Shown here: piece after piece, positions 7,979-20,922 of the stretch
Position numbering within the stretch: the stretch's first letter is position 1
Layout of the letters: the number at the start of each line of letters is the position of its first letter
Assembly (NCBI GenBank): GCA_902634185.1
Contig: CACPJC010000003.1
Span: forward strand, 32,369-96,368
Source: an uncultured Candidatus Actinomarina sp.
Lineage (GTDB): Bacteria; Actinomycetota; Acidimicrobiia; Actinomarinales; Actinomarinaceae
Direction of reading: 5' to 3'
DNA length: 64,000 bases
The notes under the pieces: model-generated
Database searches by the model: none
Told to the model about the DNA's origin: nothing
The model's input: only the letters and a program-made list of their open reading frames with translations
Program-made: the position numbers and the translations under genes

Positions 7979-9365
7979 GGGCAGCGTTTAATCTTATCTC
8001 ATCTAAGAATATTTCATTAAACAATTTGCCGTTTTCATATCTTTTTTTTAACAAATTATTTTGAATTTCTTTATCTTCTGAAATAATCTTAATTTTTTGA
8101 TTCTTCATTATTGCAAAACGCCCTCCTCTAGAATTTTTTGATTTGTCTGTTATCGGTTTTTTGTAAACATCTCTCCACGCCACACCGTCATGTAATGCAG
8201 AAACTTTCATGGCAAATGAAAAAGTATCTCTATCGACTTTTTGCAACAATGAACCTCCCATACCGAAAGTAATGTTATTTGCTGAATACTTGTTCTTCTG
8301 CATTGATAAAAGAATTTCATTAATAACATCTTTGTCTACTCCATCACCTTGAATGACTCTTATGTAATCAGGTAGCTCTTTATACCCTTTATCATTCCAT
8401 AAAAATCCAAAGTTTTTTTCATTTGATAATATATCTAATAACTTAATAATCGTTTCAGGTAAATCTCCTGAGTCTGGCCTAACTACAAGCCTTCCACCAG
8501 AGTTAATAATTTTTGATTTGAGTTCATTAGAGATAATATTTGTTGCTGTATCAAAAGTATTGTATGAATCAATAACCGAAGCAGCAACTTTACCATCTTC
8601 TTTCAAGAAAATATCAATAACATTTTCATGAGCTTCTAATTCATTTTCTTCTCCCCAGGAAGTAATTGTTGAATGTTCCGAGGCAGGAATTGAGTAAGAT
8701 ATGTCTTCTCCCGAATAATAATCTCTTAAAAATATTGCTCCCTCAACAGTATCAGAGCCAAGAAAATTTATAAGGTGTGCTGCTCCTCCAATTTGTGATG
8801 ATTCTAAACTAGATACTCCTCTTGCGCCAAAATCATGAAGCTTAAATGGTAAATCTTCTTCATACTTAGTTGAAGTTATAGATAAATAATGATTTATTAT
8901 TTTTTTTATTTCTCTCGAAATTGTCGATACAGTAGTTGGATACCAAATAGACCTTAAAAGAGCTGTTTCAATATATGAAACAAGCCATGGAACTTTAATA
9001 TCAGTATTCACTATCTGAACTAGTGGAATAGGGTTATCAACTATACTTCCTTCATCAATTGATTGAATTTCTAGCGGAAGAAATCCATTATGCTGATTTA
9101 AAATGTACTCCCAGTCTTGACGATTAAATATCCCTATATGATCCATATAAAATTTTTCTGCTTCATTAATATCTTCCATGGTTATAGGATTTAACAGATA
9201 CTTCTTAATAAAGGCTTGGAGGCCAAAAAATACAAGTTCTTGATTATTTAAATCCCTTGCTTCAATATATGCTGATAATTTCTGAGTACTTTTTGGGTAT
9301 TGTTTAAAATGTGAAACTTTATAAGAATCTACATCAAGTATAAAATTATATTTTTTTGTGTTCAT
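7971..9365 (-). CDS. nadV: Nicotinamide phosphoribosyltransferase (NAMPT/NadV family)
   Basis: 464 aa. N-terminal VDSYKVSH motif and HDFGARG block. Its 3' end overlaps korB by 8 nt (convergent). Confidence 0.85.
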   Translation of the reverse strand: MNTKKYNFILDVDSYKVSHFKQYPKSTQKLSAYIEARDLNNQELVFFGLQAFIKKYLLNPITMEDINEAEKFYMDHIGIFNRQDWEYILNQHNGFLPLEIQSIDEGSIVDNPIPLVQIVNTDIKVPWLVSYIETALLRSIWYPTTVSTISREIKKIINHYLSITSTKYEEDLPFKLHDFGARGVSSLESSQIGGAAHLINFLGSDTVEGAIFLRDYYSGEDISYSIPASEHSTITSWGEENELEAHENVIDIFLKEDGKVAASVIDSYNTFDTATNIISNELKSKIINSGGRLVVRPDSGDLPETIIKLLDILSNEKNFGFLWNDKGYKELPDYIRVIQGDGVDKDVINEILLSMQKNKYSANNITFGMGGSLLQKVDRDTFSFAMKVSALHDGVAWRDVYKKPITDKSKNSRGGRFAIMKNQKIKIISEDKEIQNNLLKKRYENGKLFNEIFLDEIRLNAALS

Positions 9366-9437
9366 GCATAAGCTACTTTTTGATTTTTACCGTATGTTTA
9401 ATTATATTTTTTTAGAATAACAATATGGCATATACTA

Positions 9438-10097
9438 ATGGAATCTAATATTTATAAAATCCGGTATGCTTTGATTGCAGAATTTTTAGGTACATTTGTT
9501 TTAGTTTTTATTGGGTGTGGTTCTATTATCCTTTCAGAAATAATGGAATTCAATAAAATATTTATTCCTATATCTTTTGGAGGATCAATTGCATTTATGG
9601 TTTATATATTAGGTAAATATTCGGGGGCACATTTTAATCCAGGTGTAACAATAGGATTTTTGATTGATAAAAAAATTAAATTAACTGACGCTTTTTTATA
9701 TATTTCAATACAGTTGTTTGGAGCCTTAATTGCATCATACATTCACTTATTAATGTTTGGCTATAACAACTCATTGGGTTTAACTGTTAAAAATACTTCT
9801 GATTTAAATGCTTACTTGTTAGAAATCTTCTTTACATTCTTACTGATGACCGTAATATTTCTTGTTACAAAAAAACAAAACTATTATGATGGAATAGCAA
9901 TTGGTGGGATTGTTGCAATAAGTGCATTCTTGATTGGAGATCTTACTGGTGGTTCATTAAATCCAGCACGTAGTCTTGGACCAATGATTGTAAAAGGAAA
10001 TTTTTTAAGTTTAGATTTATATATACTTGGACCAATAGTTGGAGCATCCTTAGCTTCCCTTATTAAAAAATTTATTGAGCAACTAATCAAAAACTAA
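9438..10097 (+). CDS. MIP-family channel (aquaporin/aquaglyceroporin-like)
   Basis: 219 aa, 6 TM. First signature reads HFNPGVT (NPG instead of NPA). Second reads SLNPARSLGP. Confidence 0.85.
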   Translation: MESNIYKIRYALIAEFLGTFVLVFIGCGSIILSEIMEFNKIFIPISFGGSIAFMVYILGKYSGAHFNPGVTIGFLIDKKIKLTDAFLYISIQLFGALIASYIHLLMFGYNNSLGLTVKNTSDLNAYLLEIFFTFLLMTVIFLVTKKQNYYDGIAIGGIVAISAFLIGDLTGGSLNPARSLGPMIVKGNFLSLDLYILGPIVGASLASLIKKFIEQLIKN

Positions 10098-10099
10098 TA

Positions 10100-10894
10100 T
10101 TAGGTAGTTAATCTATCTTTGATTTCTTCCTTTTGAAAATTTTGATTTTTTAATATGATTCTTTTTACTTCTTCAGATTTTGTTGCCAGACAAACTACAT
10201 CTTCTTTAATTAAATCAATTTCATTGCCTTCTAAGTCACTTATTGTTCCTCCAATCTCTTTAAGGATTGGTTCATAAGGTAACCTATCATGAGGAAATGG
10301 TGCATAGAAAACTATTGCATCAAAATCTGAAAATCCAAGGGAAATGATATCTTTACAAAATTGTTGTTTAGTAATGTGGGTATGTAATTTAGAAAAATCA
10401 AAATTAGAAATTGATTTTTCAACATTTATATTTTTTTCTATCATTACTGAAATTTTCTTTGATGAAGAAATATCTAAAGTATGATCAAACGTCGCTCTAA
10501 TTAATTTATTTTTCATTACGGCAACATAGATATCTTGAATTGGACAGATTACAATTCCTGTGTCCAAAATAGTATTTTCGTATGAGGCAATTAAAGTCCC
10601 CCATTCTGGCCTTCTCTGAGAAAAAGCGGTTGTTCCATCAATTGGGTCTATAATCCAAACTCTTGAACTATTTCCTTTTGTAAAACCCAACTCTTCACCA
10701 AATATTGAGTCCTCTGGAAAATAATTGCTTAAAATTTCTCTTATATTCTTTTCAACTAATATATCTACATCTGTAACAATAGAACCATCATCTTTAATGC
10801 GAATATTATATGGTTTGTAAAAGCCATTGAGTGAGGTTTCATTTACCTTTTTTACTAATTCATCAACAAAATTATCAAATTTAAAACTGTACAT
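10100..10894 (-). CDS. Inositol monophosphatase family phosphatase (SuhB/HisN/CysQ-like)
   Basis: 264 aa. GEE metal site FGEELG and WIIDPIDGTTAF motif. Confidence 0.8.
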   Translation of the reverse strand: MYSFKFDNFVDELVKKVNETSLNGFYKPYNIRIKDDGSIVTDVDILVEKNIREILSNYFPEDSIFGEELGFTKGNSSRVWIIDPIDGTTAFSQRRPEWGTLIASYENTILDTGIVICPIQDIYVAVMKNKLIRATFDHTLDISSSKKISVMIEKNINVEKSISNFDFSKLHTHITKQQFCKDIISLGFSDFDAIVFYAPFPHDRLPYEPILKEIGGTISDLEGNEIDLIKEDVVCLATKSEEVKRIILKNQNFQKEEIKDRLTT

Positions 10895-10954
10895 AAATTA
10901 ATTCTAAAGTCAAAACCAAGTGAAAAAGTAAAATAAAGAATGCAAAAAGTAAAT

Positions 10955-11836
10955 TTATCTTAAACTTAGTATAAATCCATCCCTAATTCCTAATGGTGAG
11001 ATCTTAATTCTTTCTAAACTTAAAATCTCCAAGATAACATAAATAACATATATTCCTGAATATAAAACTTCTGCTCTATATTTATTAATGTACCCCAGAT
11101 TAATTAATTCATCTAAAGACATCATTTCAATTTTGTTTAAAGAATGAATAATATTTTCACGATTTAATTCATAAAGATATTCTCTATCTAGATTATTTCC
11201 ATTTGTAAAAACCTGGTATAAATTTCTTGCAGAACCTCCACAAAAAATAACATTATTTTTAAAGTACGTACTTTCTAAATTGGCAAATTGTTTTTCTATA
11301 AATTTTTTTGTACTCTTTTTTTCATCTTCAAAGTAAGGAGGGCCTCCAATTATATTTCTAATATCTGACGTACCAAATTTAAAACTTTTCACATTGTAAG
11401 CATTATTATTTCTTACGGTAAATTCAGTACTTCCACCACCAATATCGATAACAAGTTTTTCAGAATCATCGATTAATCTGTGAACAGCTTTATACGAAAA
11501 GGTACCTTCTTGTTCAGGTGTTAAAATTTTGCCATAAAGATTCAATTCAGATTTTAAATCATTAAAGGCATTTAATCCATTTTCAGCTCTTCTAAAAGGA
11601 CTTGTACCTAATATATTCCACTCGATAGACTGGTTAAATTTCTTATTTAAAAGATCAAGAACAGCTTTTAACTCTCTTGATAATTTTGTTATCTTCTTTT
11701 CTCTTAACAATCCATGCTTTGTAATTTCACGTCCAAGCAAAGGCCATAATTTGTCAGAAAATATTAATTCCTCATTCTCATAAATAGCAAACCTTGCTGA
11801 GTTCCCACCAATATCAATTACTCCATCAATAATAAT
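10955..11836 (-). CDS. ppx: Exopolyphosphatase (Ppx/GppA family); start extended to an ATT codon
   Basis: ASKHA phosphate-1 motif DIGGNSARF lies upstream of the first TTG/ATG. Phosphate-2 motif is DIGGGSTEF. An in-frame TAA sits at 11839..11837. SD AAGGA precedes ATT-ATT-ATT (11836..11828). Confidence 0.8.
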   Translation of the reverse strand: MIIDGVIDIGGNSARFAIYENEELIFSDKLWPLLGREITKHGLLREKKITKLSRELKAVLDLLNKKFNQSIEWNILGTSPFRRAENGLNAFNDLKSELNLYGKILTPEQEGTFSYKAVHRLIDDSEKLVIDIGGGSTEFTVRNNNAYNVKSFKFGTSDIRNIIGGPPYFEDEKKSTKKFIEKQFANLESTYFKNNVIFCGGSARNLYQVFTNGNNLDREYLYELNRENIIHSLNKIEMMSLDELINLGYINKYRAEVLYSGIYVIYVILEILSLERIKISPLGIRDGFILSLR

Positions 11837-11844
11837 TTATCCTT

Positions 11845-12315
11845 TTAAATTTTAAATAGCTTTGCAGATTTTAATTTTCCTTTTTTTATTTTTATCCACC
11901 AATACCCAGCTTTTGGAACCTCAAAATTTTTAACTTCTTTTTTGCTTAATTTATTTTTATTTAAATATTTTGACAAATCGTACATTGTATCTCCATGAGT
12001 TGAAAGGATTACAGTTTTTATCTTCTGCTCAAGTGCAAACTTTAGGGAGGATTCAAACGAACCGTTTTCATTGAGTGAATCTAAAATGTTAATTGGTTGA
12101 GAAGAGTTTTGACTTAATACTCCTACTGTTTCAGTGCATCTAGTTTTAGGAGAAGAAAAAATTAATAATGGAGCAACATCTTTAAATTTTTGTCCAATTT
12201 TATTTGCTTGAAGATTTCCCTTAGCACTTAGCGGTCTTAGAGAATCGTCACCAAACCATCTTTCCCTTTTCCCGGCATGTGCGTGTCTTATAAATATTAT
12301 ATTTTCTAATTCCAT
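11845..12315 (-). CDS. Histidine phosphatase superfamily protein (SixA-like)
   Basis: 156 aa. The N-terminal IFIRHAHAG matches the RHG catalytic motif, and STHGD lies near the C-terminus. Confidence 0.75.
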   Translation of the reverse strand: MELENIIFIRHAHAGKRERWFGDDSLRPLSAKGNLQANKIGQKFKDVAPLLIFSSPKTRCTETVGVLSQNSSQPINILDSLNENGSFESSLKFALEQKIKTVILSTHGDTMYDLSKYLNKNKLSKKEVKNFEVPKAGYWWIKIKKGKLKSAKLFKI

Positions 12316-12316
12316 A

Positions 12317-14293
12317 TTATTTGTTTAACTTCTCTTGGATATTGTAGTTTCCATCTAATTTTTTCCATGTTCCATCATTTTTTAACGTCCATGAATACTT
12401 GTCAGACTTTATATATTTTTCTAAGAGACTACTGAGTTTCTTTTTTATTATCGGGCTTTTTATAGGTACTAATACTTCAATTCTATGTCTTAAGTTTCTT
12501 TGCATTAAATCTGCAGACCCTATATATATTTTTTCTATATCTGATTTTCCAAATTTATATATTCTTGAGTGTTCTAAAAAAGGACCAAGTATAGAAATAA
12601 CATTTATATTTTTAATTGGTATGAGACAACAAATTCCCCTTACTATAATATTTATCTGATTACCTGCATTAGCCGCATCATATAATTTTTGTATGATTAA
12701 TGGATCAGTAAGATTATTCAATTTTAAAACAATTTTTCCTTCTTCTCCTAAATCTATTTGTTCTTCAATTAATGAGTTAATATTTTTCTCTAAAGACTCA
12801 GGGGCTACTAGCAACTCATCAAGATTTTCTCTATCAGCATAAGCAGTTAACGAATTAAAAACTATTCCACAATCATTACCAATACTTTTATCAGATGTGA
12901 AAATGCCAATATCCTCATATCCCTTTGATGTTAAAACATTGTAATTACCTGTTCCAAAGTGCATATATGGTACTAATTCATTATTTTCTTCACGAACAAC
13001 TAAAATCATTTTGGTATGAGCTTTATATCTTGGATCTCCATACGTAACATGAACACCTGATTCTTCTAAGTATTCAGCATTCGAGATGTTTTGCTCTTCA
13101 TCGAACCGTGCTCTCAATTCAACTAAAACAGCAACTTGTTTACCTCCTCTCGCTGCACTTGCTAATAGGGATGTTATCTTATCGTTTTCAGCAGTTAAAC
13201 CAGTTCTATATTGTGTCATTTTTATGGCACGTACATATGGATCAAAACATGCTTTTTCTAAAAATCGCAAAACTGTTTTCTCAAATGAATCATAAGGATG
13301 ATGTACCATCACATCATTATTTTTAATAATTTCAAACATATCATTGCTAAATTCAAATTCAGTCTCATGTAATTTCCAACTTGTAGAAAATTCGATATGG
13401 TCTATCAAAGAATTAATTTGAAATCTAGTAAGTGGGTCCTTTAATTCTACTTGAAGGTCATAATCTATTTCTAAATTATTTTTTAAGTATTTTTGAGTTG
13501 TTACTGAAACTCCCTCTTGGATTTCTAATCTTACAATTTTTCCTAATTTTCTATTTTCTAATCCCTCTTTTACAACTTCCAGAAAATTTCGCTTTAAACT
13601 TGCTCTAAATTCTAAATCTGCATCACGAGTTGTTCTAAACCAAAACTTTTCAATAACTGTGTGTGGAAAAAACAGTTTATCAATATAGTGAAGAACCAAT
13701 TCATGTATCCATACAAGTTGTTCCTTATTTAAATTTAAAAATGAACCTAAACTTGCTGGGATTTTTATACGTATAAATTGATTATCTTCAAATTCGTTTT
13801 TGATGACTACGCCGATAGACAATGATAAATCAGAAATGTATGGAAATGGATGTGTAGGGTCTGCAGCCAAGGGAGTAAGGAGGGGTTTTATATTGTTATC
13901 AAAATAATCTTCTAAGATATCAAGCTCAGATTCAGTGAGGTCTTTCATCCTCTTAAAATTTACACCATGCTTTTCTAGATCTTTTACAAAATATTCTTTC
14001 CAAACTGTGTTTCTATTTATCATCTCCTTTTTAGCTTCTTCAAGAATATCTTTAAAATATACAAATGTTTCTTTCGAAATTGAAACATCCAGCTTTTGAT
14101 TAATAGTCTCGTAAACTTTTTCAAGCAATCCAGAAATTCGAATCTGAAAAAACTCATCTAAATTAGAATGTGTTATACCGAATAAAAATAAACGATCCTT
14201 GAAAGGAACACTGCTATCTTTTGATAAAGTTAATACTCTTTTGTTGAACTCTAACCAGGATGATTCACGATCAAGAAGATCTATATCTGTCAT
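12317..14293 (-). CDS. ppk1: Polyphosphate kinase 1
   Basis: 658 aa. N-terminal RESSWLEFNKRVL motif typical of PPK1, plus two PLD-like C-terminal domains. Confidence 0.93.
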   Translation of the reverse strand: MTDIDLLDRESSWLEFNKRVLTLSKDSSVPFKDRLFLFGITHSNLDEFFQIRISGLLEKVYETINQKLDVSISKETFVYFKDILEEAKKEMINRNTVWKEYFVKDLEKHGVNFKRMKDLTESELDILEDYFDNNIKPLLTPLAADPTHPFPYISDLSLSIGVVIKNEFEDNQFIRIKIPASLGSFLNLNKEQLVWIHELVLHYIDKLFFPHTVIEKFWFRTTRDADLEFRASLKRNFLEVVKEGLENRKLGKIVRLEIQEGVSVTTQKYLKNNLEIDYDLQVELKDPLTRFQINSLIDHIEFSTSWKLHETEFEFSNDMFEIIKNNDVMVHHPYDSFEKTVLRFLEKACFDPYVRAIKMTQYRTGLTAENDKITSLLASAARGGKQVAVLVELRARFDEEQNISNAEYLEESGVHVTYGDPRYKAHTKMILVVREENNELVPYMHFGTGNYNVLTSKGYEDIGIFTSDKSIGNDCGIVFNSLTAYADRENLDELLVAPESLEKNINSLIEEQIDLGEEGKIVLKLNNLTDPLIIQKLYDAANAGNQINIIVRGICCLIPIKNINVISILGPFLEHSRIYKFGKSDIEKIYIGSADLMQRNLRHRIEVLVPIKSPIIKKKLSSLLEKYIKSDKYSWTLKNDGTWKKLDGNYNIQEKLNK

Positions 14294-14985
14294 ACATTTT
14301 GTTTAAATTTAATTGAAAAAGTAGTGCCCTCACCTAGCAAACTGTCTAGTTCAATTGTCCCGTTATTCCTATCAACTGCATGTTTTACTATTGAAAGACC
14401 GATTCCTGTTCCACCTAAGTTTCTAGACCTGCCTTTATCAATTCTATAGAATCGTTCAAAGATTCTTTCTTGATCTTGTTGAGAGATTCCCTTACCTTTA
14501 TCTATTACTTTGAATAAAACATCTTCATCATCCTTCTTCAAATGAACTTCAATAGGAGTGTCTGGGTCAGAATAAGTAACTGCGTTACGTAATATATTTC
14601 GAACGATTAATGCAAAATCTTCTTGGTCAACATTTATATGAATATTTTCAATGTTTGCATTAAGTCTGGCTTGATCGTTTTCTTTTAAGTATGAAATTTC
14701 CATATTTACTATATTTTCAAGATCAGCAATTTCTAAATTTGGTTCATTTTGCTCAATTTTAGATAAATCAAGTAAATCACTGATAAGGAGTGACATTCGT
14801 TCACTGTTTCTAAGAATTTGTTTAATAAACTTTAATCCATCCTCTGTATTTCCATCATTTATAGCATTTAATGCTGTCTCTGCTGCTAGTTGGATAGACG
14901 TTATCGGAGTTTTCAACTCATGAGATGCATTTGCAACAAAATCTTCTCTTATTTTTTCAATATTTTGTTCTTGATTTTCATTCAT
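14290..14985 (-). CDS. senX3: Histidine kinase, DHp+CA core only (SenX3/PhoR-like, no TM or PAS)
   Basis: 231 aa. H-box NASHELKTP begins at residue ~19. N, G1 (DKGKGI) and G2 (GGTGIGLS) boxes present. Overlaps regX3 by 8 nt. Confidence 0.85.
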   Translation of the reverse strand: MNENQEQNIEKIREDFVANASHELKTPITSIQLAAETALNAINDGNTEDGLKFIKQILRNSERMSLLISDLLDLSKIEQNEPNLEIADLENIVNMEISYLKENDQARLNANIENIHINVDQEDFALIVRNILRNAVTYSDPDTPIEVHLKKDDEDVLFKVIDKGKGISQQDQERIFERFYRIDKGRSRNLGGTGIGLSIVKHAVDRNNGTIELDSLLGEGTTFSIKFKQNV

Positions 14986-15670
14986 CTTCTACAAGTTTAT
15001 ATCCTACTCCTCTAACAGTTATTAATTTTTTAGGATCTTTTGGATTTTTCTCAATTTTTTCGCGAATTCTTTGTATATGTACATCAAGTGTTTTTGAATT
15101 ACCTATAAACGTATATCCCCATATTTCATCAAATATTTGTTCTCTAGACATTAAATTACCTTTATTCTCACAGAGAGCATAAAGAAGTTCAAATTCTCGA
15201 GGTCTCAAATTAATTTGTTTATCATTAACTTTTGCTTCATATTTACCAATGTCTATCTCAATATTTCCAACTTTTATTGCCTGTGATGATTTTTCATTCT
15301 TAGACATATCTGTCCTTCGTAGCACTGCCCTGACTCTGCTTAATAATTCTCTTACAGAAAATGGCTTTATAACATAATCGTCAGCACCGATTTCAAGTCC
15401 AGCAACTCTATCAGCTTCACTATCTTTAGCAGTAACCATAATTATTGGTATATCTGATGTTTTACGAATCGATCTACATATATCTAAACCAGAAATTTCT
15501 GGAAGCATCAAATCAAGAATAATTAAACTAAACTCTTCTTCCTGGAATAGCTCTAACGCAATAGGTCCTTCATCAACATGAGTTACAGAAAAACCCTCTT
15601 GTTTTAAGTTGTATGATATTGAGTCAGCAATACTATGCTCATCCTCTACTAAAAGGACTTTTTGCTTCAT
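14978..15670 (-). CDS. regX3: OmpR/PhoB-family response regulator
   Basis: 230 aa. Receiver domain (LVEDE...ILDLMLP...KP) plus winged helix (TVRGVGYKL). Confidence 0.92.
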   Translation of the reverse strand: MKQKVLLVEDEHSIADSISYNLKQEGFSVTHVDEGPIALELFQEEEFSLIILDLMLPEISGLDICRSIRKTSDIPIIMVTAKDSEADRVAGLEIGADDYVIKPFSVRELLSRVRAVLRRTDMSKNEKSSQAIKVGNIEIDIGKYEAKVNDKQINLRPREFELLYALCENKGNLMSREQIFDEIWGYTFIGNSKTLDVHIQRIREKIEKNPKDPKKLITVRGVGYKLVEDE

Positions 15671-16311
15671 TAAAATTCTTTAAACTCTCCGGTAACCAAA
15701 AAGTGTGTGAGCTCACAAATATCAACTGCATGATCTCCACCCCTTTCTAGTGTTCGCATACAGGTAACAAGTCTAAATAATCCATTATACAAATCTTCAT
15801 TGCCAGCAATTTTTGGGGCTTCTTCTAGCATTGAGTTGTATAATCTATTTACTTGACTATCTTTTTCTGACGTTACTAGAGCTAAGTCTTTATCTCTGGT
15901 TTTTAAGCTTTCCATAGCTGATGATGCCATGTCAATTACTATATCTCCCATTTCAACAACTGTTGCATGGATAGACTCTGGTACAGGTGAATCAAAAATC
16001 TCTTTCGTCGTTTTTCCAAGATAGACAGCTAAATCACCAAGACGCTCTAAATGTAAACTGGCTTGTAAAATAGATGTAGAAAGTCTTAAGTCAGTGGCAA
16101 CAAGTTGCTCAGTGGCCATAAGTTCAATCCAGTCCTCATCAATCTTTAGGTAAGATTTATCAATTTCATCATCTTTTTCTATTGTTTCTATAGCTCTATT
16201 GACATCTTTATCCTCTAAAGCTCTTACGCCATCTACTAAAGAATCTAGTACAAGTCTTGCCATTAAATGTAAATCTGTCTCAAGATTGTCAATCTTGTCT
16301 TGTAAACTCAT
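15670..16311 (-). CDS. phoU: Phosphate signalling protein PhoU
   Basis: 213 aa two-repeat PhoU fold with ERLGDLA and ERGGDHA motifs. Confidence 0.92.
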
Positions 16312-17123
16312 CCAAACCTTCCAGATATATATTGTTCAGTTAATTCCTCATCAGGATTTGTAAACATGGTATTCGTTTCATTGAACTCAACTAATTCTCC
16401 AGTTCTTCTTTTGCCATCATCGGAGGTTTTAGTTGTAAAAAATGCACAATAATCAGAGGCTCTTGAGGCTTGCTGCATATTGTGCGTAACAATAAGAATT
16501 GAAAACTCTTTCACTAACTCTTGCATAAGGTCTTCTATTTTTTTTGTTGCTACAGGGTCTAATGCAGAGCAAGGCTCGTCCATTAAAATTGTATCTGGCT
16601 CAACTGCAATTGTTCTAGCAATACACAATCTTTGTTGCTGACCACCTGATAGCTCTAATGCATTTTTGTTTAAATCATCTTTTACTTCATCCCATAACGC
16701 TGCTTGAGTTAATGCCCTCTCTACTCTTTCATCCATATTGTCAGTCATGTTGTTGACTTTAAGCCCAAAGGTAATATTTTCTTTGATAGTTTTTGGGAAA
16801 GGATTTGGTTTTTGAAAAACCATTCCGATTCTTCTTCTCACTTGCACTGGATCAACCATTTTGTCGTATAAATCAACACCTTGATAATTTATTGTTCCAT
16901 TAACTTTTGCACCCAATATAAGATCATTCATTCTATTAAATGTTCTTATCAAAGTACTCTTTCCACAACCAGATGGGCCAATAAAAGCTGTAATTTTATT
17001 TTTAGAGATATCCATATTTACATTTTTGATAGCTACGAATTCTCCGTAGCTTACGGAGACATCTTTTACATTGAATACATTTTCATTGTTTACTTGAACT
17101 GTTTCTTTAGTTTCCATTCTCAT
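16308..17123 (-). CDS. pstB: Phosphate ABC transporter ATPase
   Basis: Walker [10 protein letters not shown], signature LSGGQQQR, Walker B ILMDEP. Confidence 0.96.
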
Positions 17124-17141
17124 TCTCCTTTATGATTTTCA

Positions 17142-18089
17142 CTAAAAATCTTTCTCATATCTGTTTCTTATAAATATTGCTATTGAATTCATTAATAATA
17201 ATAAACCTAGAAGTAAAATGATTCCAGCGGAAGCTGTCTCCTTCCACTCAGCTTGAGGATAACCAACCCAGTTATAAACTTGAATTGGAATAGCGGTAAA
17301 CCCACTTAAAGGAGTGTCTGGAAAATAATTAACATAAGTCAATGCACCCATAAAAATTAATGGTGCGGTCTCTCCAATTGCTCTTGAGAGCCCAAGGACC
17401 ATTCCAGTAACCATTCCTGGTATTGCAGAGGGAACAACCTGCCTAAAAACTGCTTGAAATTTAGTGGAACCTAGCGCCAATGCACCCTGGCGTATTGTAT
17501 CTGGAACAGCTTTAAGAGCCTCCCTAGATGCTACGATTACAACTGGAAGAATTAATAACGTTAATGTTAAACCTCCTGAAAGTACTGACCTTCCAAATCC
17601 AGCTAAACGAACAAAAACAGCTAATCCTAGTAAACCATAAATAACTGATGGAACTCCAGCCAAGTTTGTTAGATTTAATTCAATAAATCTTGTAAGCCTA
17701 TTTTTTGGAGCAAATTCTTGAAGATATATTGCTGCTCCTGCACCAAAAGGAAATGTTGCAGAAATAACTATTATCATTAACCATAATGTTCCAGCAAAAG
17801 CAGGTCCAATACCAGCTCTATCTGGATATCTTGAGTCTAAAGTTGTTAAAAAATCTCTCGGGTTATCAATTTGTATTTTTGTAATGAGGCCAACCTCGTA
17901 GTCTGATGTCAATCTTGTAGTCCCAGTAGAAAGAACATCATAGATTAAGGTCATCAAAGTTAAAATAGCAATCGTTACACAAATATAAAGAGTGAACAGA
18001 AACAAACTCTCCTTTATTGCATTTTCAGCTTTCTTGCCGGTTATAATTGTTTCGTTACTCATATTCTTTTCTGTACTTTCTAGCGACAT
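17142..18089 (-). CDS. pstA: Phosphate ABC transporter permease PstA
   Basis: 315 aa. EAA-type loop RQGALALGSTKFQ. The start may be an internal Met. Confidence 0.9.
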   Translation of the reverse strand: MSLESTEKNMSNETIITGKKAENAIKESLFLFTLYICVTIAILTLMTLIYDVLSTGTTRLTSDYEVGLITKIQIDNPRDFLTTLDSRYPDRAGIGPAFAGTLWLMIIVISATFPFGAGAAIYLQEFAPKNRLTRFIELNLTNLAGVPSVIYGLLGLAVFVRLAGFGRSVLSGGLTLTLLILPVVIVASREALKAVPDTIRQGALALGSTKFQAVFRQVVPSAIPGMVTGMVLGLSRAIGETAPLIFMGALTYVNYFPDTPLSGFTAIPIQVYNWVGYPQAEWKETASAGIILLLGLLLLMNSIAIFIRNRYEKDF

Positions 18090-18972
18090 AATCAGAAGCT
18101 ATATTCAAAATAAAAGTCATAATAAATAAAGTTATTCCAAGTGCGAATAAAGCATTATAAGCAGTGGTGCCATGAGGTGTATCACCAAGGGATACGTTTA
18201 CTATTGAGGAAGTGATCGTATACATTGCACTCCTAGGATCTAAATTTAATTCAGGATACTGCCCACCTGCAATAGTCACAATCATTGTTTCACCTATGGC
18301 TCTTGAAAAACCTAATATAAATGAAGCAATAATTCCAGATATTGCTGCAGGGAACATAATTTTAAGTGCTGTGATCCTCCTGGTAGAGCCAAGAGCTAAG
18401 GATCCATTCCTTAGAGAGTTTGGTACTGCATTAAGGGCATCATCAGAGATTGATGCAATTGTAGGTATTATCATTATTCCTACTGCAATACCTGCGGACA
18501 GAGCATTGAATACACCGGTACCTGGAATAAATCTTTGAATTATATTTGGCGTAATCCAGTTAAGTGCAAAATAACCAAATACCACTGTAGGAACTCCAGC
18601 CAAAACTTCTAAAACTGGTTTGATAACTTTTCTTGTTCTTTTTGTGGCAAACTCAGATAGGTAAATTGCAGAAAACAAACCTAATGGAAAAGAAATAAGA
18701 CACGCAATAACCGCAATATAAAGAGTTGAAGAGATTAAAACAATAACACCGTACTCAGGATTTTGAAACGTAGGTGTCCACCTAGTTGCAGTAAAATAGC
18801 CCTTTAAAGTTACAGCTGGATCTTGAAAAAAGTTAATGGCTTCAGTTAGTAAGGTAAAAACAATTGAAATTGATATTAGTATTGCTGCAAAAGCAGAGAC
18901 AGTTATAAAAAATTTTACTACTTTTTCAAAAGGTTTTATTGAGGTTTGAGATAATTCAGATAGTAGACTCAT
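18055..18972 (-). CDS. pstC: Phosphate ABC transporter permease PstC
   Basis: 305 aa. Contains RNGSLALGSTRRI and SRAIGETM motifs. Confidence 0.9.
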   Translation of the reverse strand: MSLLSELSQTSIKPFEKVVKFFITVSAFAAILISISIVFTLLTEAINFFQDPAVTLKGYFTATRWTPTFQNPEYGVIVLISSTLYIAVIACLISFPLGLFSAIYLSEFATKRTRKVIKPVLEVLAGVPTVVFGYFALNWITPNIIQRFIPGTGVFNALSAGIAVGIMIIPTIASISDDALNAVPNSLRNGSLALGSTRRITALKIMFPAAISGIIASFILGFSRAIGETMIVTIAGGQYPELNLDPRSAMYTITSSIVNVSLGDTPHGTTAYNALFALGITLFIMTFILNIASDYVARKYRKEYE

Positions 18973-19015
18973 ATTTTGCTTTTTATTCTTTCTTTAACTT
19001 CTTCTTTAATTGTAG

Positions 19016-19044
19016 TTTGTGAGGGCCAATTAGGCCCTCACAAA
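19016..19044 (-). terminator. Perfect 12-bp hairpin between pstS and pstC (intra-operon attenuator candidate)
   Basis: tttgtgagggcc (19016..19027), loop aatta, ggccctcacaaa (19033..19044). GC-rich core in an AT-rich genome. Confidence 0.55.
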
Positions 19045-19065
19045 TTTACAAATAATTGAGGAGTT

Positions 19066-20922
19066 TTATCCTCGACTGAATGCGGACCAGCCCATCAATG
19101 ATGCCATCTTTTGTTCTGGAAGCATTGGAACATATCCCACTGCTGGGACAATTGCATCCATTGCTACGAAATAAAAGTCAACAAATTGACGAACTTGAGA
19201 CATTCCTTTTGCAGCTTCAGCTACATAAATGAATAGCGGACGTGCTAGGAAGTAATTTCCTTCAAAAGCTGCTTCTGGTGGTTGACAACCATCACCTGCA
19301 TCAACTTCAACAGCAGTTAGTTTATCTTTGTTCTCTTCATAATATGCGAGTCCAAAGTATCCTAATCCACCAGCTGATCCTGCGACACCGTTTACGAGAA
19401 CGTTGTCATCTTCAGATGCTGTATAGTCTGATCGACTTCCACCTGCGTCTTCTGTAAGCTCTTCATTGAAGAAGTCAAATGTACCTGAGTCTGTACCTGG
19501 ACCATATAGGTCTAGTGCAACATCAGGGAAACCTGCTCTAACATCTTTCCAGTTTGTTATTGTGCTATCTGCACCCCAGATTGATGTTAATTCAGCAGTT
19601 GTTAAACATGTTGCCCAGTCATTTGATGTTGGAACAACAACAGAAAGTGCATCGATACCTACTTGAATTTCAAGGTATCCAACACCATTTTCTTCACAAA
19701 GTGCTTTTTCTTTATCTTTAATTGGACGTGACGCGTCTGAAATCATTGTCTCACCTGGACAGAATTTCTTGAATCCTCCACCAGTTCCTGAAACACCGAC
19801 TGATATAGCTACATCTGAATGAATAGCTGTAAACTCTTCAGCAACGGCTTGTGTTACAGGGAACACTGTCGATGAACCATCAATAAGAATTTCTCCACTG
19901 AGGGTTGAATCGCCAGATATAACCTGCCAGTATTCTAATTGTCTATCAGCTGCATCTGGCAACATTGGTATGTAGCCAACAGCTTCAACAATTGGATCAA
20001 GTGAGTCAAAGTAAAAGTCAACGAAAGCTTTGATTACAGGATCTTTTGCTTTAGCATCATTTACATATATAAATAATGGTCTTGCTAATCCATAAGTTCC
20101 TGAGAAAGCTCCTTCAGGACCTATACATCCTTTTCCTGCATCAACTTCAACAGCAGTTAGTTTATCTTTGTTCTCTTCATAATATGCGAGTCCAAAGTAT
20201 CCTAATCCACCAGCTGATCCAGAGACACCGTTTACGAGAACGTTGTCATCTTCAGATGCTGTATAGTCTGATCGACTTCCACCCAAATCTTCAGTTATTT
20301 CTTCATTGAAGAAGTCAAATGTACCTGAGTCTGTACCTGGACCATATAGGTCTAGTGCAACATCAGGGAAACCTGCTCTAACATCTTTCCAGTTTGTTAT
20401 TGTGCTATCTGCACCCCAGATTTTTCCTAATTCTTCAACTGTTAAACATGTTGCCCAGTCATTTGATGTTGGAACAACAACAGAAAGTGCATCTACACCG
20501 ACTTGTAGTTCAGTGAACTCTGTGCCACCTTCATAACAGAGATTTCTTTCTTTATCTTTGATTGGTCTTGAAGCATCAGATATATCTGTTTCTCCAGGAC
20601 AAAATTTCTTGAATCCTCCACCGGTTCCTGACACACCTACAGATATTTCTACACCTGGGTTAACTGCAGTAAATTCTTCTGCTACAGCTTGTGTAATAGG
20701 GAAAACAGTTGAAGATCCGTCGATAAGTATTGATCCAGTTAAGCCTGCATCACTACTACCACTATCAGAAGCTACAGTTGTTTGACTACTGGCTGTTTCC
20801 TCCGATGTTGTTGGTTCTTCACTTTCTTCTGAAGAGGTATCATCATCTCCACCACCACAGGCAGCAAGAACGAGAACCATCACAAGAAGTAAAGACCAAA
20901 ACTTAGATCTTGATCTAATCAT
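19066..20922 (-). CDS. pstS: Lipoprotein made of two tandem PstS phosphate-binding domains
   Basis: 618 aa. Lipobox LAAC. The block [11 protein letters not shown](I/V)TQAVAEEF...[29 protein letters not shown]... occurs twice, 280 aa apart. Confidence 0.92.
19298..19655 (-). repeat. Near-identical intragenic DNA tract, copy in PstS domain 2
   Basis: Aligns with 20138..20495 at an offset of exactly 840 nt, with only short mismatched patches. Confidence 0.85.
20138..20495 (-). repeat. Near-identical intragenic DNA tract, copy in PstS domain 1
   Basis: Partner of 19298..19655. Confidence 0.85.

Follow-up and report, generated by a model that had tools for sequence, protein, structure and literature searches.

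Where does translation begin when every canonical start codon in a gene's frame lies beyond the first conserved motif of its product? The question is raised by ppx, a gene of the Ppx/GppA family, in a 64,000-nucleotide (nt) stretch of DNA, here called the window, from an uncultured Candidatus Actinomarina sp. (GenBank assembly GCA_902634185.1, contig CACPJC010000003.1, positions 32,369 to 96,368). We propose that ppx very probably initiates at a non-canonical AUU codon, either the AUU at 11836-11834 or one of the two that directly follow it, and at AUC in one subclade of its relatives. Initiation at AUU is strongly supported by comparative data, a selection analysis, a predicted structure and the N-termini of homologous proteins.

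All genes and sequence elements given here with coordinates lie on the minus strand of the window. Read from the first ATT, the ppx coding sequence occupies 10955..11836 and comprises 293 codons and a stop. Its frame is closed directly 5' of this codon by a TAA (11837..11839), which is preceded by a Shine-Dalgarno (SD)-like AAGGA (11840..11844) and, 8 nt 5' of the first ATT, by the TAA stop of a sixA-like gene (11845..11847). Direct reading of the sequence gives three consecutive in-frame ATT codons (11828..11836) as candidate initiation codons, and the order along the strand is AAA ATT TAA, AAGGA, TAA, ATT ATT ATT, GAT GGA GTA ATT GAT ATT GGT GGG AAC TCA GCA AGG TTT. From 11836 to 11789 the ppx frame translates to IIIDGVIDIGGNSARF. 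It holds no ATG, GTG, TTG or CTG between the TAA at 11839-11837 and a TTG at codon 33 (11738..11740), which sits 25 codons past the Asp of the conserved DIGGNS motif and is used by gene callers to give a 261-residue product. The initial annotation had placed this motif 5' of every canonical start; each of its coordinate and sequence statements on the ppx start region proved right by direct reading, the first canonical codon being the TTG at 11740.

A run of 32 codons without ATG, GTG, TTG or CTG has a probability of ~0.34 under the window's own codon usage and is unremarkable for this genome, so the absence of canonical codons is not in itself the signal. The signal is the combination of the in-frame stop directly 5', the homologous phosphate-1 motif 3', the only unexplained lead in the window, and the recurrence of this arrangement in all 26 loci compared. 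Among ~51 plausible window genes, ppx alone has a long pre-start lead that is explained neither by overlap with the upstream gene nor by an ordinary intergenic gap. The other long leads were considered as candidates for non-canonical starts and rejected, each being accounted for by upstream-gene overlap, an ordinary intergenic gap or a probably spurious open reading frame (ORF).

The comparison set of 26 loci was assembled from a genome scan, a metagenome scan, contig look-ups and cluster listings, and spans three clades at 41-46% protein identity. The codon homologous to the first ATT of the window, seven codons before the Asp of DIGGNS (codon -7), is ATT in 24 loci and ATC in the remaining two (L004 and L010, from one subclade), and a near-cognate AUN codon is in this way conserved at the homologous N-terminal position throughout the orthologs. 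Conservation of ATT in related genomes, a check proposed in the initial annotation, is therefore largely found; its claim that ppx can initiate at AUU only holds as far as the start is non-canonical, and fails as to AUU alone, given the ATC subclade. In none of the 26 loci does an ATG, GTG, TTG or CTG occur in frame between the upstream in-frame stop and the motif, and in all of them the frame from codon -7 is intact and exactly 293 codons long. Two single-cell genomes (L001 and L002) match the window at 99% identity and share its junction. Codon -7 follows the sixA-like stop at a distance of 8 nt in clades 1 and 2, as compared with 11 nt in clade 3, and every locus carries an SD-like element 3-6 nt before codon -7, in the form of AAGGA, AGGA (6 nt, clade 2) or a weak GTGAG (5 nt, clade 3). 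The DIGGNS motif is invariant within the Actinomarina clade.

No close relative with ATG at the start position was found in the genome and metagenome collections, in protein searches, among the cluster members or by HMMER in 1.84 billion cluster representatives. In a collection of 5.8 billion proteins the clade amounts to four 90% clusters holding 247 sequences. The HMMER scan returned two matches at E<=1e-30, both of them truncated calls, and the next relative beyond the clade stands at 101 bits and 32% identity. In these sequence comparisons the Actinomarina Ppx clade is isolated and uniformly ATY (where Y is T or C).

A ribosome-binding signal is present at working distance from the proposed start. 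AAGGA(G) is the recurrent SD form in the window, where an SD-like motif precedes 18 of 51 genes with a modal spacing of 5 nt, and the AAGGA of ppx stands 3, 6 and 9 nt from the three ATT codons. Homology would favor the first of these and SD spacing the second, whose 6 nt are close to the window mode and equal to the AGGA-ATT spacing of clade 2. Initiation at an Ile codon other than codon -7, whether the second or third ATT or the ATT/ATA codons at -2/-1 before the Asp, gains a little further support from one homolog (P0156) with only four residues before the Asp, set against the six to seven that are typical. We nevertheless consider it unlikely: codon -7 is the sole invariantly Ile-coding position among residues 1-4, residues 2-4 being variable, and its distance is fixed at seven codons to the motif in all clades and nearly fixed (8-11 nt) to the upstream stop. 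Such a choice among Ile codons is in any case a refinement of non-canonical initiation and not an alternative to it.

The protein read from the first ATT has the sequence features of a normal, intact exopolyphosphatase of the Ppx/GppA family, with activity predicted. It matches the Pfam profile PF02541 (Ppx-GppA) over both domains at 107.4 bits (cut-off 27) and TIGR03706 at 147.9 bits over residues 5-291, the latter score lying below the 307-bit equivalog trusted cut-off of that model. At the extreme N-terminus, D8-I-G-G-N-S13 (11798..11815) forms the phosphate-1 loop of the ASKHA fold and aligns with the DIGSNS/DIGSYS of the Aquifex aeolicus structures; across a set of 50 homologs, G10 and N12 are kept in 90% or more. 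In Ppx proteins this loop is the ASKHA element that binds polyphosphate or nucleotide phosphates and is not strictly ATP-binding, a small correction to the wording of the initial annotation. The phosphate-2 motif D131-I-G-G-G-S-T-E138 (11423..11446) has the DxGGGSxE pattern and, together with the catalytic Glu, falls in invariant columns of a 50-sequence alignment (E110, D131, G133-G135, S136 and E138). The invariant catalytic columns of this alignment are all kept in ppx, the others being T78, R82, N86, S151, G155 and G201. The phosphate-2 motif in particular indicates a catalytically intact gene.

The AlphaFold2 model of this protein (pLDDT 94.4, pTM 0.91) has a two-domain ASKHA fold, and the top 37 Foldseek matches in the PDB are all Ppx/GppA or Ppx-like proteins (TM up to 0.86). 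Like the short-form Ppx/GppA proteins of A. aeolicus (1T6C/2J4R), Cytophaga (3MDQ) and P. gingivalis (7EPQ), it has ~300 residues in two ASKHA domains with both phosphate motifs and the catalytic Glu (TM 0.77-0.86). It differs from them in sharing only 17-27% identity. In HMMER alignments the PDB Ppx/GppA chains pair with the query from residue 4-7 onward, with E-values from 7e-18 (A. aeolicus) to ~4e-7 (P. gingivalis). Residues 3-30 (11747..11830) are modeled as strands β1 (3-9), β2 (14-20) and β3 (23-30) of the domain I sheet, with pLDDT 90-94, and all three are encoded 5' of the first canonical start codon. Since β1-β3 precede residue 33, a product started at the TTG is predicted to be without the phosphate-1 loop and without three of the five strands that make up the core of domain I. 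No canonical start can yield these elements, as would be expected of a gene initiated at AUU or AUC.

Such a truncated product is what would be made if translation began at TTG 11740 and the upstream DIGGNS stretch were the untranslated relic of a decayed 5' end. Several observations make this very unlikely. In the ppx frame, purifying selection acts on codons 2-34 (dN/dS, the ratio of non-synonymous to synonymous substitution rates, is 0.06-0.45), and the segment 5' of the canonical start is therefore both translated in that frame and under constraint. It is better conserved than the remainder of the protein, with an inter-clade dN of 0.30 as compared with 0.50 for the rest of ppx, and the 293-codon frame has stayed open in every locus despite synonymous divergence that is saturated (dS about 1.0-1.3). 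In the commonest clade 3 variants the first canonical in-frame codon lies 91 codons past the Asp, so that a canonical-only model would delete 98 residues, a third of the enzyme. The TTG at 11740 has no SD motif upstream. Finally, 45 of 45 distant homologs with canonical starts begin 4-10 residues (mode 6-7) before the Asp, in line with the seven residues of the window protein, and none begins after the motif; most among the matches listed in the scan of 1.84 billion representatives likewise align from query residue 3-7. The initial annotation had proposed alignment with Ppx homologs as a check on whether the N-terminus is required, naming functional proteins that begin after DIGGNS as the contrary outcome, and the homologs bear out the need for the N-terminus.

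What speaks for the TTG is that almost every public gene call follows this type of model. Truncated calls of 255-261, 195 or 166 residues account for every cluster representative and for nearly all members, and the UniProt entry S5DKQ1 (Ca. Actinomarina minuta) is listed at 259 residues, likewise truncated. Only two members have 293 residues, a MetaClust ORF (MIIDG...) and NCBI MFL2652222.1 (MKNIG...). In the DNA of the latter (L013:3001, from an NCBI metagenome-assembled genome, MAG) the annotated start is the homologous ATT. The NCBI MAG submissions are not consistent with one another, MFL2689723.1 being called at 261 residues from a TTG and MFL2652222.1 at 293 residues from the ATT; the ATT start has thus been adopted once by an annotation pipeline, but inconsistently. 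In two clade 2 sequences (L014:1501 and L015:1501) the substitution F19L, from TTT to TTG, brings a further canonical codon into the frame, which the gene caller picks to give a 275-residue call. This behavior shows that caller output follows incidental TTGs and not the real start. The error is systematic: in the sampled members of the four clusters, all but two sequences are 32-127 residues too short, and truncated entries that lack the phosphate-binding loop would mislead structure-based or metabolic inference on phosphorus cycling in the ocean. A search of the literature turned up nothing relevant, either on an ATT start of ppx or on polyphosphate genes in Actinomarina. For residues 1-32, the predicted peptides are (M)IIDGVIDIGGNSAR, FAIYENEELIFSDK and LWPLLGR in clade 1 and NIGIIDIGGNSAR in clade 2.

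Slightly less probable again is recoding, in which a canonical start in another frame, within the sixA-like gene or a mini-ORF, would be followed by a frameshift, or in which readthrough would produce a SixA-Ppx fusion. Clades 1 and 2 do have a TTG or ATG in the +1 (sixA-like) frame within a few nt of the ATT, and L003 and L004, which differ as TTTG and CATG, both retain a start codon in that frame. The candidate mini-ORFs, TTG ATG GAG TAA in the window and TTG/ATG..TAG in clade 2, are out of frame with ppx. The order of stop codons speaks against a shift from the sixA-like gene, whose stop (11847) precedes the in-frame TAA (11839) in the window, so that a shifted ribosome would meet a stop; with no slippery heptamer at the junction, frameshifting or fusion from that frame was ruled out. 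RNA structure around the ppx start is no different from that of shuffled sequences (z = 0.23) and offers no significant element to stimulate shifting. In clade 3 the sole nearby canonical codon, a GTG, is in the +2 frame. Start-like codons occur at ~3% per position, so out-of-frame starts near A/T-rich sites are expected by chance, and we rejected the mini-ORFs as the true entry point on this ground and because their frames differ between clades (+1 in clades 1 and 2, +2 in clade 3).

That a sequencing or assembly error, an indel or a substitution, hides a canonical ATG in the window has a negligible probability, as nothing favors it beyond the general possibility of error in A/T-rich repeats (ATTATTATT), the junction is identical in the window, the two single-cell genomes and a Sanger-sequenced GOS contig (L005), these independent data types agree with MAGs and with ENA and Logan assemblies, and the other two clades likewise lack a canonical start in different junction sequences from many independent assemblies.

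How might ribosomes enter ppx at such a codon? The leader is 20/24 A/U, and the only Rfam family found in the window is one tRNA-Gln, with none at the ppx start. We envisage that the 30S subunit would be positioned by the AAGGA in this very A/U-rich, unstructured leader, and that ribosomes terminating on the sixA-like cistron a few nt upstream may also re-initiate at ppx; the sixA-like gene (11845..12315; Pfam His_Phos_1) is the upstream cistron and probable partner in translational coupling. The ppx start is probably coupled to termination on this cistron. Every locus of sufficient length has the sixA-like gene ahead of ppx. Initiator tRNA would then decode AUU as formylmethionine, as in infC and pcnB of Escherichia coli and ebpA of Enterococcus faecalis. 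Ppx would be made at a fraction of the AUG rate, and its synthesis may be sensitive to initiation factor 3 (IF3).

The closest analog, as judged by its layout, is the thrS-infC junction of E. coli, where the preceding cistron likewise ends a few nt before an AUU (UAA GGU AUU). The infC start also has an SD, and other species have kept it non-canonical. Expression there, to which re-initiation and de novo initiation contribute about equal shares, is ~4-fold below that from AUG, and an A/U-rich enhancer boosts initiation at AUU ~3-fold (PMC3592434); for ppx we infer both routes of entry as well as the reduction. The stop-to-start gap is 8-11 nt at ppx and 3 nt at infC. A further difference is that the AUU of infC serves as the sensor in an autoregulatory loop, with IF3 discriminating against its own start codon, whereas nothing links Ppx functionally to IF3. 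A second parallel is pcnB of E. coli, the gene for poly(A) polymerase I, where inefficient initiation at AUU keeps the enzyme at a low level (Binns & Masters 2002, as cited in PMC3592434 and 10.1101/063800). Like Ppx this enzyme is harmful or wasteful in excess, and for pcnB too a canonical-looking annotation, there upstream, is wrong. Unlike ppx it belongs to a different family and is not a downstream cistron coupled to its antagonist, and the limitation is experimental for pcnB and deduced for ppx.

In E. faecalis ebpA the annotation again used a downstream canonical start, an ATG 120 bp into the gene as compared with a TTG 96 bp into ppx. The true start of ebpA was predicted in silico to be an upstream ATT, and an ATT-to-ATG change raised expression (PMC4447247). 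The ebpA product is a surface pilin and its start was verified by mutagenesis, whereas clade-wide conservation at >50% protein divergence is a feature of the ppx case only. The Deinococcus genes dnaA (ATC), rpsL (CTG) and infC also have lineage-conserved non-canonical starts that were missed by gene callers (PMC2830850); these differ from ppx in having been revealed by N-terminal proteomics and in belonging to a different phylum and different genes.

The surroundings of ppx suggest what a weak start might achieve. The gene belongs to a phosphate cluster (10100..18972) that comprises pstC/pstA, pstB, phoU, a response regulator, a kinase, ppk1, the sixA-like gene, ppx and an IMPase/HisN-like gene. 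Between neighbors in the stretch from pstB to ppx, starts and stops overlap or are separated by no more than 8 nt, as compared with ~18 nt between the pst permease gene (17142) and pstB (17123) and ~60 nt between ppx and the IMPase-family gene. The polyphosphate kinase gene ppk1 (12317..14293) carries four PP_kinase Pfam domains, and its stop lies 1 nt before the sixA-like ATG. Clades 2 and 3 keep the order ppk1-sixA-ppx, whereas the genes on either side vary from one Actinomarina clade to another. No minus-strand terminator-like site was found between 19058 and 9900; in a promoter and terminator scan of 9900-19200 the counts were at or below shuffle expectation, which is compatible with one long transcript and otherwise uninformative.

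With ppk1, the sixA-like gene and ppx probably on one message, a low rate of initiation at AUU would set a low Ppx:Ppk1 ratio. Reporter measurements in E. coli put AUU, AUC and AUA at 1-2% of AUG (10.1101/063800). In a standard SD context AUU and UUG were 6-8-fold below AUG and GUG, with AUU at ~12-25% of AUG overall and the native infC junction 4-fold below AUG (PMC3592434). Throttling of Ppx relative to ppk1 by a weak start, which the initial annotation had advanced as deliberate, is plausible, and it is consistent with these efficiencies for AUU and AUC and with a tightly packed minus-strand string of genes that has no terminator-like site. By analogy, a weak start on the degrading enzyme behind the synthesizing enzyme would be a sensible way to avoid a futile cycle.

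Whether the start codon is itself under selection is a separate matter. It is conceivable that AUU/AUC is a selected regulatory device in these streamlined marine actinobacteria, which would keep the Ppx:Ppk1 ratio low on a single Pho-linked message and, through IF3 discrimination and coupling to translation of the sixA-like cistron, make polyphosphate breakdown depend on the cell's translational state (IF3:ribosome ratio and growth rate). We regard this extension as doubtful. The pattern of ATT or ATC and never ATA or ATG was tried as evidence for selection of the start codon and rejected as underpowered, with P ~0.2-0.5 for four lineages.

Several points weigh against our interpretation, some against its regulatory part and some against the start itself. 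With G at 10% of third positions and a sample of about four independent lineages, the retention of ATY over ATG is not statistically distinguishable from AT-biased drift. Co-transcription with ppk1 is suggested only by gene spacing and the absence of terminator-like sites. All three ATTs, and the Ile codons at -2/-1, remain candidate initiators. An SD-like motif is found at just 35% of window genes, and clade 3 has only the weak GTGAG; the SD was moreover judged by the window's own motif form, the anti-SD of the 16S rRNA lying outside the window. Lastly, the organism is uncultured, and the case is built from sequence comparison and a structure model.

Other features of the cluster and of the window deserve brief mention. 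Among NCBIfam models the sixA-like protein scores best against NF052459, which describes the C-terminal half (a histidine phosphatase) of mycobacterial MutT1; the score of 47.8 bits falls far short of the cut-off, and SixA follows at 26.5 bits. The ATG of the sixA-like gene, 1 nt after the ppk1 stop, has no SD. Beside the PhoB-like regulator lies a histidine kinase gene (14290..14985) of only 231 residues (HisKA and HATPase_c), which matches just the C-terminal half of PnpS/PhoR models and so is without a membrane or sensor region. The kinase gene overlaps its neighbors at both ends, by 8 nt with the regulator stop at its start and by 4 nt with the ppk1 start at its stop. The G+C content is 0.285-0.31 across the ppx/ppk1 region (8001..16000 of the window) as compared with 0.35-0.41 at 16-52 kb, and this region is possibly a compositionally distinct phosphate island. 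Elsewhere in the window, a single ORF of ~3003 residues (37921..46932) has a C-terminal sortase domain (residues 2875-2994) and weak matches to Reelin-subrepeat-B, CHB_HEX_C and BNR-like repeats. A giant repeat protein fused to a sortase is unusual.

Initiation of the kind proposed here is already known from infC, pcnB and ebpA, and ppx is a new, clade-wide instance and not a new mechanism. Very few bacterial genes have a well-supported, clade-wide non-canonical start, infC being the classic one. To these ppx would add the gene of a metabolic enzyme, from a lineage that ranks among the most abundant actinobacteria of the sea. If AUU/AUC did prove to be a selected device, it would constitute a second infC-type physiological circuit, and one that lies outside the translation apparatus itself. 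The finding also offers a testable hypothesis for how a genome with few regulators may balance polyphosphate synthesis against its degradation from one operon.

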